From a virus, in UHGV virus genome UHGV-0404708: a stretch of 39,970 bases of DNA; one strand, given 5' to 3'. Under the pieces are notes generated by a model that was not told the DNA's origin, ran no database searches, and saw nothing but the letters and a program-made list of their open reading frames with translations. The first letter of the stretch is position 1, and each line of letters opens with the position of its first letter. Below are positions 14,796 through 36,799 of the stretch, one piece after another. Position numbers and translations under genes: made by a program.

Positions 14796-15515
14796 TCAGA
14801 AGAACCCTGCCTTGTCGTTGATGTACTCCGCGTGCGTCTGGATATCACGCAGGCATTTGCTCACACCGACGATGTAGCAGAACATGGTGGTCAGCTCCGC
14901 CGCCGCGCCCGATACGTCGTGCCCGTCGTCCTGTAACTGGTTCAGCAGATTCATCAGCAGTGAGTTCTCAGTCAGGCCGAGAACACCAGACGGGGAATGA
15001 ATCAGGCTGCGGTAGCCGGGCTTCAGCGGGGCACTGTATTCTTTTTTGTCTTCCAGCTTGATCGCCTCCATAATGGCGGGCATGAATTTTTCAATTACCT
15101 GAGTGGCCTTTGATAAATCAGCTCCACCTGAGAGACGAACATCTCCACTGACATTTGCGGGTTTTCTGTCGAAGTAGCAATCTTCCAGTTTTTCGAAGAC
15201 CTCCCACGCTTTTTCAGTCTCAAGAATTTTCGCATGTCGTGCTGCACCGCGAGCGGTCCATAAGAAAAGATGACTTACTTTTGGTGCAATATTAAGCAAA
15301 CCTCTTTGAGAGGACTCGTTCTTAAATGCTCGTAATTCTTCGCCTGTCAGCTTGAAACAATGTTTTCCCTCAATGAATCGATCTGCATTTCGTTGATAGT
15401 TTTGACGAATCAGTTTGGGTTCTGTGTCATACAAATCAGCAAGCATTTCTGTAGTCATTACAGGGATGTTGCAATGAGTTGTTATCGGCAACTTATCAAT
15501 AGCTATATTACGCAT
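14796..15515 (-). CDS. ORF6N-domain protein with C-terminal domain paralogous to 16329..16586 (antirepressor-like)
   Basis: Track ORF 14796..15530; ATG 15515 preferred (SD GGAGG, 8-nt overlap with upstream stop); N-terminus fits the ORF6N/KilA-N-type DNA-binding pattern; C-terminal ~60 aa align with the 85-aa protein. Confidence 0.65.
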   Translation of the reverse strand: MRNIAIDKLPITTHCNIPVMTTEMLADLYDTEPKLIRQNYQRNADRFIEGKHCFKLTGEELRAFKNESSQRGLLNIAPKVSHLFLWTARGAARHAKILETEKAWEVFEKLEDCYFDRKPANVSGDVRLSGGADLSKATQVIEKFMPAIMEAIKLEDKKEYSAPLKPGYRSLIHSPSGVLGLTENSLLMNLLNQLQDDGHDVSGAAAELTTMFCYIVGVSKCLRDIQTHAEYINDKAGFF

Positions 15516-19599: not shown

Positions 19600-20218
19600 A
19601 CAATTCCAGCGAGCTGCTGGTATTAGCGAGGCGCTGGCCGCTCGCTGGTTCTCGCATATAACTTCTGCGATGAAAGAGTTTGGTATCAGCAAAGCAGAAG
19701 ATCAGGCAATGTTTATTGCTCAAGTCGGGCATGAGTCTGGGGGCTTCACCCGGTTGCAGGAAAATTTCAACTACAGCGTCAGCGGACTGGCTAACTTCGT
19801 TCGGGCTGGGCGTCTCACTCAGGGACAGGCTAATGCACTTGGTCGCCGTGCTGGTGAATCACCATTGCCACTCGAGCGCCAGAGAGCGATCGCCAATCTG
19901 GTGTACAGCAAACGCATGGGGAACAATGCCTCTGGTGATGGCTGGAATTACCGTGGCCGCGGACTTATCCAGATTACCGGTTTGAATAACTATCGTGATT
20001 GCGGAAACGGCCTGAAAGTGGACCTGCTGGAGAATCCTGAACTGCTGGCGCAGGACGAATATGCGGCTCGTAGCGCGGCGTGGTTTTTCTCCAGCAAAGG
20101 CTGCATGAAGTATTCCGGAGATATTGTACGTGTAACTCTGATTATCAATGGTGGCAGGAACGGCATCGACGACCGGCGCGCGCGTTACATCACTGCCAGT
20201 AAGGTGCTGGCGGTATGA
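19589..20218 (+). CDS. endolysin, glycoside hydrolase family 19 (chitinase-like) type
   Basis: Motifs [12 protein letters not shown] and [11 protein letters not shown] typical of GH19-type phage endolysins. Confidence 0.85.
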
Positions 20219-20697
20219 TCTGGGCATTCGTAAAAGCATACTGGAAACAGTTGGTTATCATAGCGATCCTTGCTGTTCTGGTCATGTCAGGAGTTGTAGC
20301 CTGGAATGCACACGGCAGTCGTCAGTACGACGCCGGGTATGCGCAGGCGAAAGAAGACCGCAAAGCCGAAGAAGAAAAAGTTCGTCAGCACTACGAACAG
20401 GAGAAAGCGACTAATGAACGTGAAGCGCAGCAGAGGATCGATCAGGCGCGCAGCGATGCTCTTGATGCTGCCGCTCGCGCTGGCAGGTTGCAGCAACAGC
20501 TCGTTGCCATCCGTGAGCAGCTCAGGCAGTATAACGCCATTGTCGGCGCTGGGGCGTCAGCCGCAGATACCGGAGTTTTGCTTGCCGACGTGTTCAGCAA
20601 ATCTCTCGAGAGAAATAGACAACTGGCAGAGTATGCTGACCGGGCAGCCGAAGCCGGAAGAGTCTGCGAAAAACAGTACGACACCCTGACCAGATAG
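20215..20697 (+). CDS. i-spanin (Rz-like)
   Basis: 160 aa; N-terminal TM helix then charged coiled-coil region; ATGA overlap with endolysin stop. Confidence 0.7.
20414..20689 (+). CDS. o-spanin (Rz1-like lipoprotein) embedded in the +1 frame of the i-spanin gene
   Basis: In track ORF 20306..20689; ATG 20414 (alt 20456) gives signal peptide with lipobox LAGC, then Pro/Ser-rich short mature protein. Confidence 0.65.
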   Translation: MNVKRSRGSIRRAAMLLMLPLALAGCSNSSLPSVSSSGSITPLSALGRQPQIPEFCLPTCSANLSREIDNWQSMLTGQPKPEESAKNSTTP

Positions 20698-20870
20698 CAT
20701 GGCATTTTTCATGGTACTGATTTTCGGTGACGGTATATAAAACGGTATGGTGAAAATCAAGTTGCGGAAAGTTGTTATCAGTCAATTGGTTATGTATGTC
20801 GTAAATAATTGAGTGGGAATGATTAACAGCTAACTCATAGCAAATCATTCCTATTCAGATGCCAACTCAA

Positions 20871-20900
20871 CCCTCTGTTTTTGCAGAGGGTTTTTGTTTT
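20871..20900 (+). terminator. rho-independent terminator after lysis cassette
   Basis: CCCTCTG-loop-CAGAGGG followed by TTTTTGTTTT. Confidence 0.75.
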
Positions 20901-20957
20901 TATGTATTCATTTCTATTCACTCTACACCATATTTTTCGGCGGTACAGGTGACGGTA

Positions 20958-20972
20958 TTACCTTAAAGGTAT
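20958..20972. promoter_or_regulatory. operator-like palindrome (one mismatch)
   Basis: TTACCTTAAAGGTAT, about 45 bp upstream of integrase start. Confidence 0.4.
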
Positions 20973-21014
20973 ACTCTCATACCGTCATGAAAATGGTTTC
21001 TATACGGGTGAATT

Positions 21015-22271
21015 GTGCTTACCGATACAAAATTAAAGAACCTCAAGCCACAGGACAAACTGTACAAAGTTTCCGATCGTGACGGGCTGTATGTAGCTGT
21101 GCTTACGTCAGGTACGGTCTCGTTTCGCTATGACTACCGTATCAACGGTCGCCGCGAAACACTGGTAATTGGGCAGTATGGGCGTGACGGTATCAGCCTG
21201 GCAGAAGCGCGAGAAGAACTGATTGCTGCAAAGAAGCTGCTTAAAGCAGGCCAGTCACCGGCTGCGGCTAAACGTGACGGTATCAAAAAGATTCGTGGTG
21301 CCGAGACGTTTGCGGTACATACCGACAGTTATATGAAACACGTCATCCTGGCTGAAAGTACCCGCGCAATGAAGCTGGCAGTGATCGACCGTGACATACT
21401 TCCTGTTCTTGGCAACAAAATGATGGCTGAAATTACCACATCGATGGTTCGTGATTTGTGTGACAGGATTGTCGAACGCGGTGGTCGGGCAACAGCAGTG
21501 CAGGCCAGGGAGATCATCAGCAGCGTATACCGTCACGCCAATGACCGTGGTCATGGTTTGTTTAATCCTGCGGCTGACATTAAACCTTCGTCTATCGCCA
21601 TATTTAAACCACGAGAGCGAACACTGACACCAGAAGAAATTGGCCTGTTCTTCCGCACGCTGGATGCCATTGGTGCTATGGGCACTATGAAAATGGCTTT
21701 AAAGCTGGTGCTTATCACTATGGTTCGTAAAGGCGAATTCACCAATGCAACGTGGGATGAAATAGATTTTAAAAAATGGACATGGACAATTCCTTCAGAC
21801 CGCATGAAGGGAAGCCGGGCGCACGTTATTTACCTGCCTAAACAGGCACAGGATATATTGGTTGGGTTGCAGATGTGCGCTGGTGGAAGTGAATATCTGG
21901 TTCCTGGTCGTTACAATTTCCGGAAGCCATTATCTAATGCCGCGCTGAACTCTCTGATCGACAGAACGGTGAAAATAATAAATGAAGATGGTGAGCATAT
22001 TCAGGACTTCACCGTACACGATATGCGCCGTACAGCAAGTACGTTGTTGCATGAGGCTGGTTATCCTTCAGACTGGATTGAAAAGGCTCTGGCACATGAG
22101 CAGAAAGGTGTGCGCGCCGTATATAACAAAGCGGAATACGCCAGACAGCGCGCCTACATGTTGCAGCAGTGGGCCGATATGATTGATTCCTGGATTAACG
22201 GGGAGCATACGGATCTGATTCCGTTCTCCCCGTCGAAGTTTGAGAAGTGGATGGAAGACAGTAATAAATAA
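21015..22271 (+). CDS. int: tyrosine integrase, P4-type
   Basis: 418 aa, GTG start; N-terminus MLTDTKLKNLKP... typical of P4-family integrases; recombinase-like C-terminal half. Confidence 0.9.
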   Translation: MLTDTKLKNLKPQDKLYKVSDRDGLYVAVLTSGTVSFRYDYRINGRRETLVIGQYGRDGISLAEAREELIAAKKLLKAGQSPAAAKRDGIKKIRGAETFAVHTDSYMKHVILAESTRAMKLAVIDRDILPVLGNKMMAEITTSMVRDLCDRIVERGGRATAVQAREIISSVYRHANDRGHGLFNPAADIKPSSIAIFKPRERTLTPEEIGLFFRTLDAIGAMGTMKMALKLVLITMVRKGEFTNATWDEIDFKKWTWTIPSDRMKGSRAHVIYLPKQAQDILVGLQMCAGGSEYLVPGRYNFRKPLSNAALNSLIDRTVKIINEDGEHIQDFTVHDMRRTASTLLHEAGYPSDWIEKALAHEQKGVRAVYNKAEYARQRAYMLQQWADMIDSWINGEHTDLIPFSPSKFEKWMEDSNK

Positions 22272-23981: not shown

Positions 23982-24230
23982 TCATGCAGCGTTGCTCACG
24001 GGACGATATACACGTTGCTGAACAGGAGGTTTTTTACCCTGGAACTCTGCTGGGCTTGCTGCCTGACGTTCATCAAGCCAACGTTCAACTTCATCACGGT
24101 TCCATGCGCAGCGTTTATCGGTGATATACCAGCGTTTGGGAAATTCCCCTGCGCGCTCCATACGGTCGATAGTGCTCCATGACAGTGGCACCACCGCCAG
24201 GAGTTCCTTCTTACCTAATGCACCTTTCAT
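23982..24230 (-). CDS. AlpA-family DNA-binding protein (possible excisionase/regulator)
   Basis: Track ORF 23982..24251 (TTG); ATG 24230 with SD GAGAGG; LSWSTIDRMERAGEFPKR...W pattern like AlpA/Xis-type proteins. Confidence 0.55.
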   Translation of the reverse strand: MKGALGKKELLAVVPLSWSTIDRMERAGEFPKRWYITDKRCAWNRDEVERWLDERQAASPAEFQGKKPPVQQRVYRPVSNAA

Positions 24231-24279
24231 AAATACCTCTCTTGGTTGCAATGCGGCGCGCGTGGCGCCGCGGTGGTGG

Positions 24280-36722: not shown

Positions 36723-36799
36723 TGGCGTGGCATGCAGGATTCGAACCTGCGACCAACCGCTTAGAAGGCGGTTGCTCTGTCTAACTGAGCTAATGCCAC
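36723..36799 (-). tRNA. tRNA-Arg (anticodon UCU)
   Basis: Minus-strand read GTGGCATTAGCTCAGTTAGACAGAGCAACCGCCTTCTAAGCGGTTGGTCGCAGGTTCGAATCCTGCATGCCACGCCA folds as cloverleaf: 7-bp acceptor, GCTC/GAGC D-stem, ACCGC/GCGGT anticodon stem with loop CU-UCU-AA, GCAGG/CCUGC T-stem with TTCGAAT loop, encoded CCA. Confidence 0.9.

Follow-up and report, generated by a model that had tools for sequence, protein, structure and literature searches.

The closest described counterparts of the locus analyzed here are the attachment sites of phages ZX5, phiV10, and epsilon15. The core shared by attP and attB of ZX5 was proved by PCR and Sanger sequencing and is identical to the 17-mer described below, and phiV10 and epsilon15 are stated to use that same core (PMC9782041); an earlier paper had placed a phiV10-related prophage at guaA (PMC3293862). 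A second described element that enters the same gene is GIsul2, which recombines within GAGTGGGA in guaA (PMC9376610). The epsilon15 record already carries annotated arm motifs, IHF sites, hairpins, and a terminator. Two further points of reference are the attP of phage lambda, which has a P-O-P' layout with arm-type sites, sites for IHF, Xis, and Fis and a 7-bp overlap region, and the satellite phage P4, which targets tRNA-Leu.

The window analyzed here, meaning the whole 39,970-nucleotide stretch of UHGV virus genome UHGV-0404708, is assigned by its nucleotide identity to the phiV10-like Uetakevirus (95.7% identity to phiV10 across 79% of the first 25 kb); no exact match to this genome was found among deposited records. 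We conclude with high confidence that the stretch separating the Rz spanin gene from int (20698–21014; Table 1) is the attP of a temperate phiV10/epsilon15-type podophage (Uetakevirus), in which Int recombines ATTGAGTGGGAATGATT with the identical 3' end of guaA. Set against the ZX5/phiV10/epsilon15 attP (core attgagtgggaatgatt, the guaA 3' end), this phage has an identical 17-bp core in the same place, ≈190 bp upstream of int and downstream of Rz, with flanks that are 85 to 97% identical and the same attL/attR structure at guaA, such that only point differences separate them. A 403-bp segment (20698–21100) is 93.5 to 96.8% identical to Escherichia phages with complete matches, and the interval is ≈79 to 87% identical to Uetakevirus phages of Salmonella, Enterobacter, and Klebsiella. 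The att site of this genome can thus be labeled with confidence; the attP site, its core, and the guaA target are already published for Uetakevirus and the arm motifs are annotated in epsilon15, so nothing here is new in kind and the significance beyond correct annotation is small.

The left border of the attP intergenic region is formed by the last lysis gene, the homologue of which is labeled Rz-like spanin in the phiV10 and epsilon15 records. On the right lies int, the translation of which scores above the Pfam cut-offs for an N-terminal Arm-DNA-bind_3 domain (PF13356; 72 bits, 3.9e-20), a central Phage_int_M domain (PF22022; 47 bits), and a catalytic Phage_integrase domain (PF00589; 71 bits, 1.6e-19); the segments MVRKGE, HDMRRT, and AHEQKGVRAVY, read from the translation alone, hold candidate residues of the R...HxxR...H...Y set. 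The proposal of the sequence-only reading that attP lies directly upstream of a P4-type integrase is borne out, with the core inside the interval and an arm-binding domain in Int. No sigma-70 promoter for int passed a promoter scan; a TATACT is visible upstream of int with a GTGACG -35-like hexamer at 15-bp spacing, on which we do not rely. Farther downstream, the candidate excisionase ORF matches Phage_AlpA with E = 3.5e-5 (24.0 bits versus a cutoff of 21) and sits among minus-strand genes for a metallophosphatase, an MT-A70 methyltransferase, a PerC-like protein, RecT, and a PDDEXK-like protein (DUF3799).

Table 1. Features in and around the attP region, in window coordinates
Feature	Positions	Strand	Basis or remark
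Rz-like spanin gene (DUF2514)	20215..20697	+	Pfam DUF2514, E = 2.7e-42
Arm-type Int site GTGACGGTAT, P arm, 81 bp left of core	20727..20736	+	Exact copy
Partial second arm-type site ACGGTAT, P arm, direct	20742..20748	+	Read from sequence
Three IHF-like matches (WATCAANNNNTTR, one mismatch each), between P-arm sites and core	20776..20814	.	20776+, 20780+, 20802-
Candidate core-type sites and overlap, GTAAATAATT - GAGTGGG - AATGATTAAC	20801..20827	.	Read by eye
Common core ATTGAGTGGGAATGATT, 17 bp	20808..20824	+	Same in attP, attB, attL, and attR
Long imperfect hairpin/inverted repeat	20810..20857	+	Left arm, core; right arm, AATCATTCCTATTCA; small inner stem between
Direct repeat TCATT[C/T]CTATTCA, copy 1	20845..20857	+	Repeat search; lies in hairpin right arm
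Rho-independent terminator downstream of core	20869..20902	+	Terminator prediction
Direct repeat TCATT[C/T]CTATTCA, copy 2	20908..20920	+	63 bp from copy 1, beyond terminator
Arm-type Int site GTGACGGTAT, P' arm	20949..20958	+	Exact copy; "integrase" in epsilon15 annotation
Inverted arm-type site, P' arm (ATACCGTCAT on + strand)	20979..20988	-	One-mismatch copy
int, P4-type tyrosine integrase, 418 aa, GTG start	21015..22271	+	Pfam domains
Arm-type motif in int, codons R57-D58-G59-I60	21184..21193	+	Exact copy; "integrase" in epsilon15 annotation
Arm-type motif in int, codons R87-D88-G89-I90	21274..21283	+	Exact copy; "integrase" in epsilon15 annotation
Degenerate inverted arm-type motif in int (CATACCGACA), codons V101-D104	21318..21327	-	Repeat search
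Exact inverted copy in int	21527..21536	-	Not conserved in epsilon15, SPN1S, PAT1
AlpA-family small ORF, 89 aa, candidate excisionase (recombination directionality factor)	23982..24251	-	Pfam Phage_AlpA

The identification rests on the core and on host junctions. The core occurs once in the window, between the Rz gene and int, and reads ATT GAG TGG GAA TGA plus TT, which corresponds to the last four codons of guaA (I-E-W-E), its stop codon, and two nucleotides. Among 5,426 complete E. coli genomes, 556 match the interval, and nearly all of these matches are broken at junctions. In the attL class, matches begin at 20808 right after guaA sequence and run into int; in the attR class, matches come from Rz, end at 20824 and are followed by yfgI-side DNA; the overlap of the two classes in these E. 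coli lysogens, which are relatives with 92 to 100% identical junction DNA and not lysogens of this phage itself, is ATTGAGTGGGAATGATT. The empty attB of K-12 MG1655 holds the exact 17-mer at the end of guaA, and a four-way alignment of attP, attB (K-12), attL, and attR follows the Campbell pattern, with flanks exchanged around the 17-bp identity. In strain RS571, attL and attR are ≈40.6 kb apart, in line with the phage genome size. A search of viral contigs with the integrase returned only relatives that are ≈99% identical, most of which end at the att site, and so contributed no further diversity.

Inspection of the crossover region reveals that GTAAATAATT and AATGATTAAC form a 10-bp imperfect inverted repeat (8 of 10 positions matching) around a 7-bp spacer, GAGTGGG, and that GTAAATAATTGAGTGGGAATGAT (20801–20823) is invariant across eight aligned phages from four host genera (Escherichia, Salmonella, Enterobacter, and Klebsiella). 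This arrangement would be consistent with the crossover of GIsul2 within GAGTGGGA and is, we infer, a better candidate for the core-type sites than the 9-bp inverted repeat GGAATGATT (20816–20824)/AATCATTCC (20843–20851); it would also resemble lambda, where a 7-bp overlap lies between imperfect inverted core-type sites, the overlap and sites of this phage being candidates. The 9-bp repeat was considered as a core-type pair and rejected: a spacer of exactly 18 bp is too wide, the left arm is the common core itself, and the right arm, 18 bp farther on, consists entirely of phage DNA, so the pair does not represent core-type sites bracketing the crossover. The length of this repeat and its spacer had been read correctly from the sequence, but it is really part of a longer repeat with 15-nt arms (20810–20824/20843–20857) that are 87% complementary. 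Matches to the IHF-like consensus WATCAANNNNTTR number 45 window-wide versus 38 ± 6 in shuffled sequences and are thus not above chance; the epsilon15 RefSeq record annotates IHF sites at positions equivalent to the three matches in Table 1.

Considered as RNA, the long hairpin has a folding energy of -21.2 kcal/mol (z = -5.4) on the plus strand and -14.3 kcal/mol (z = -2.9) on the minus strand, and pairing is retained in 91% of pair cells across 16 enterobacterial elements. These features, together with three pair positions that are G-U in most members and would pair only as plus-strand RNA, and with the "RNaseIII" label given to nearby hairpins in the epsilon15 record, speak for a reading in which the inverted repeat acts not as protein-binding DNA but as RNA, that is, as an RNase III-type processing site or a stabilizer ahead of the terminator, in plus-strand transcripts from guaA (lysogen) or the lysis operon (phage). 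Against this, covariation among the 16 elements is not significant (only a single pair has changed in both arms, and the signal is no higher than in shuffled controls), a test that is weak because the left arm is fixed by guaA coding; the right arm is a copy of a direct repeat whose second copy (20908–20920) lacks anything to pair with, a feature more suggestive of a protein site; and visual inspection of a few distant relatives revealed no similar inverted copy of the core. We regard an RNA role as less likely than not.

The direct repeat flanks the terminator and may be a site for an accessory protein. In copy 1, CTA.T.A is invariant in the 16 elements and the remainder is largely conserved. 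Several distant relatives, inspected by eye, appear to have lineage-specific repeats in the same arrangement, for example CTATCG, with two copies on each side. The stem of the enclosed terminator is conserved in 16 of 16 elements, and the phiV10 and epsilon15 records annotate a terminator there too. The native guaA terminator of K-12 is AACCCTCTGttactaCAGAGGGTTTTTT (minus strand of the K-12 locus, about 2905–2935), and the two terminators have identical 9-bp stem arms (AACCCTCTG...CAGAGGGTTTTT) and a T tract, differing only in the loop and in the distance from the core. The phage terminator has the look of DNA derived from the host, or of a maintained mimic, taking the place of the displaced guaA terminator. 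In the integrated state, guaA retains its stop codon and is followed by an equivalent terminator, and the native one lies behind the prophage lysis genes.

The second hallmark of the interval is a repeated motif on both sides of the core. An 11-bp direct repeat, GGTGACGGTAT, is found at 20726–20736 and 20948–20958, and an inverted ATACCGTCA at 20979–20987. Allowing at most one mismatch, GTGACGGTAT occurs 10 times in the window, compared with 1.55 ± 1.25 expected, a count reached by 0 of 100 shuffles; all five exact copies and one single-mismatch copy fall inside 20727–21536. The shorter GACGGTA behaves similarly, with 6 of its 11 window copies in an 806-bp stretch of this region when 2.4 are expected for the whole window. 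Each repeat listed in the sequence-only reading is indeed present where it was placed, and the motif is far commoner than chance; that list is accurate in its coordinates and omits three exact copies that lie within int (21184+, 21274+, and 21527-). The epsilon15 RefSeq record marks four direct copies of the motif as integrase-binding, including an "integrase" protein_bind feature at the position equivalent to 20727..20736.

Alignment of the eight phages resolves near-invariant islands in an otherwise variable spacer, namely GGTGACGGTATATAAAACGGTA, GTAAATAATTGAGTGGGAATGAT, the terminator stem, CTATTCACTCTA, and a largely conserved 20941–20987 block (CGGTACAGGTGACGGTATTACC...GGTATACTC.TCATACCGTCA). 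In the P arm, the invariant block GGTGACGGTATATAAAACGGTA (20725–20747) contains the 20727 site, and ACGGTA of the partial second site (20742–20747) is invariant in all eight phages, with T20748 replaced by C in phiV10, BUCT554, and Tyrion. In the P' arm, a partial copy, CGGTAC (20941–20946), precedes the 20949 site, within which TGACGGTAT (20950–20958) is invariant and G20949 is an A in BUCT554 and a C in BUCT711; an arm site at -64 from int is also found in nine further enterobacterial prophages. The inverted 20979 site is mostly kept, although BUCT554, Tyrion, and BUCT711 show single-base differences. Copies of the motif therefore flank the core and occur in both orientations (20727+ and 20742+ in the P arm; 20949+ and 20979- in the P' arm, plus the intragenic copies), which is the pattern of arm-type sites in a complex attP. 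The suggestion that these repeats are arm-type is thus supported by their presence on both arms, their invariance in the phage family, and their conservation over a deep integrase clade; on this comparative evidence, the GTGACGGTAT repeats appear to behave as arm-type integrase sites.

The motif extends into the coding sequence of int. In a codon alignment of the first 186 codons of 22 integrase genes, down to ≈60% amino acid identity, the 21184 site is encoded by CGT-GAC-GGT without synonymous variation in 22 sequences, GAC and GGT of the 21274 site are invariant and its CGT is present in 20 of 21 sequences, and the codons GTA-CAT-ACC-GAC (21316–21327) that contain the degenerate inverted site are likewise invariant; more distant relatives have an exact TACCGTC at +305, the same place as the 21318 site. 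All other Gly and Arg columns in the alignment use three to six different codons. Zero synonymous variation characterizes 9 of 10 motif codon columns versus 7 of 166 others (Fisher p = 3e-10, a value that overstates independence because the 22 sequences are related and that includes a 21318 site picked after seeing the data). The 21527- copy, exact in the window and unconserved in relatives, was rejected as a functional site and is probably not functional. These patterns provide evidence that the P' motif array may run into the int ORF, for recombination, autoregulation, or both.

To place the motif in a wider context, we scanned one genome per species for related integrases and obtained 47 relatives, the best 39 of which were examined. 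Thirty of these 39 sit next to a guaA gene ending ...IEWE*, 190 to 360 bp downstream of it; these guaA-linked integrases are 47 to 90% identical and come from alpha-, beta-, and gamma-proteobacteria. In the 30 elements plus the window, GACGGTA occurs 106 times in 7,561 intergenic bp versus 19 times in the other 80,433 bp of these loci, a ≈59-fold enrichment between guaA and int. Many of the 30 elements share a common order of a direct pair, an inverted copy, and one or two direct copies, with the inverted copy following the direct pair in nearly all of them, and the remaining guaA–int spacer is unalignable between proteobacterial classes. In high-G+C relatives the copies within int are absent, and two additional direct copies lie upstream of the gene instead. 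This cross-clade conservation is the strongest evidence here that the motif may be the recognition sequence of the integrase N-domain.

GIsul2 falls within the same comparison. Its Int (pAB3) is homologous to this Int (54% identity over 396 residues, E = 4e-139), the GIsul2 family of genomic islands and integrative mobilizable elements has the same target gene and the same central core octamer, GAGTGGGA, and an AlpA-type gene is found both in this phage and in GIsul2, where it lies beside int. It differs in being a 15-kb mobilizable island and not a phage, in sharing a shorter core, and in its repeats upstream of int, which are CATGGTAT-like (pAB3 locus 15080–15500) where those of this phage are GACGGTAT. 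The arm motif appears to have diverged together with the integrase, and this attP is a member of a wider GIsul2-type clade of guaA-specific integrases. We assign roughly even odds to the fuller proposal that 21184+, 21274+, and 21318- would be further Int-binding motifs in the first 313 bp of int, fixed synonymously, with an attP of ≈600 bp overlapping int or an Int that autoregulates inside its own coding sequence, and that TGACGGTA would be the recognition code of one guaA-targeting integrase clade of alpha-, beta-, and gamma-proteobacteria. The intragenic synonymous constraint and the cross-class motif conservation are small additions that are unstated in the literature consulted, and both offer leads for integrase specificity.

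P4 Int is reported to repress its own gene, and the GTGACGGTAT copies near and in int could likewise be mainly operators for Int self-repression and not architectural arm sites. The oppositely oriented copies at 20949+ and 20979- bracket the largely conserved -10-like TATACT upstream of int, and the three further copies in the first 313 bp of int are under synonymous constraint, both of which would suit operators. However, one and a half copies (20727–20748) lie beyond the core, ≈290 bp upstream of int and past a terminator; these are invariant in the eight phages save for one terminal base, which is the both-arm pattern, and no promoter passed the scan. A mainly operator function is in our view unlikely, and the operator and arm-site roles of the motif are not mutually exclusive. 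Very improbable, in turn, is the notion that the repeats are functionless products of chance or codon usage: both intragenic direct copies encode R-D-G-I, so that their identity derives in part from the protein sequence, but the shuffles never reach the observed count, the motif is invariant in the noncoding DNA of the eight phages and strongly enriched across 30 diverged elements, and synonymous positions are frozen only at motif codons.

The arm-site reading of the motif allows a mechanism to be proposed, in which a heterobivalent P4-type tyrosine integrase would carry out Campbell-type integration from an intasome built on both-arm sites and the guaA core. The N-terminal domain of Int would bind the (G)TGACGGTAT motifs of the P arm (20727, 20742) and the P' arm (20949, and 20979 inverted) and probably also the copies in its own gene (21184, 21274, and 21318 inverted), while the central and catalytic domains would act at the core, where strand exchange is most likely within GAGTGGG(A) (20811–20818), the putative overlap. 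Help would probably come from host bending proteins and from an AlpA-type excisionase; the AlpA-family protein encoded on the minus strand at 23982–24251 is, to judge from its family, probably required for excision. Integration would restore the last four guaA codons and the stop codon and would put the phage hairpin and the copy of the guaA terminator directly behind guaA, which would give the guaA transcript a proper end and keep guaBA read-through out of int. This scheme resembles lambda in its heterobivalent tyrosine integrase and in having a short core flanked on each side by arm motifs, which occur in both orientations. Unlike lambda, the integrase belongs to a clade with a P4-type Arm-DNA-bind_3 N-domain and a different motif, int is located downstream of attP and reads away from it, the motif array appears to extend ≈310 bp into int, and the target is the end of a protein-coding gene for which the phage supplies a replacement terminator.

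This phage shares with P4 the integrase family and an attP just upstream of int, the two features from which attP had been called from the sequence alone; it differs in targeting guaA and in having no tRNA-like sequence in the interval. That the core is the 3' end of a tRNA or tmRNA gene, as also predicted, has in its favor only the general habit of P4-type integrases and a window tRNA gene that lies far from int, and it is almost certainly wrong, since ARAGORN finds no tRNA or tmRNA in the interval (the only tRNA gene of the window is at 36723–36799), Rfam has no match within 20500–21400, every match in host genomes falls on the 3' end of guaA, translation of the core gives IEWE-stop, guaA is the target named in the literature, and the junction data already refute it. 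The phage-borne gene, a tRNA-Arg (anticodon TCT) on the minus strand, is unrelated to the att site. The search of host genomes that had been proposed does yield an identical core, in the protein-coding guaA gene and not in a tRNA or tmRNA gene. The earlier call had been made dependent on a host tRNA-identical core in the interval; there is none, and with it the tRNA target falls, but the attP call stands because the core maps inside the interval. With host matches to guaA and no tRNA or Rfam match, the attP call was right and the predicted class of target wrong, and "P4-type integrase, therefore tRNA target" is an unsafe rule.

These comparisons confirm guaA as a landing site shared by phages, resistance islands such as GIsul2, and mobilizable elements, which may therefore compete or stack in tandem. 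An intact Rz-attP-int junction is present in the chromosome of E. coli Z1323CEC0007 and in six other E. coli genomes, and in most of these the interval has one or two additional partial matches; the intact junctions are most readily explained by tandem double lysogeny at guaA. The records OR424387.1 (HEMP4), MN187550.1 (phiv142-3), and OQ921333.1 (PAS61) have a terminus at, or close to, the att core or the attP spacer (20821–20824 or 20698–20721 on the window scale) and appear to have been linearized in the att region, for example along prophage coordinates or by an arbitrary cut, and not at virion ends. Two plasmid records from duck E. coli, NZ_CP079771.1 and NZ_CP079768.1 (41,027 bp), encode an integrase that is 98.5% identical, and these "plasmids" are probably a phage of similar kind assembled as a circle. 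Finally, several large Klebsiella plasmids, for example NC_021654.1, encode an integrase with 82% identity, a hint that integration into plasmids occurs.
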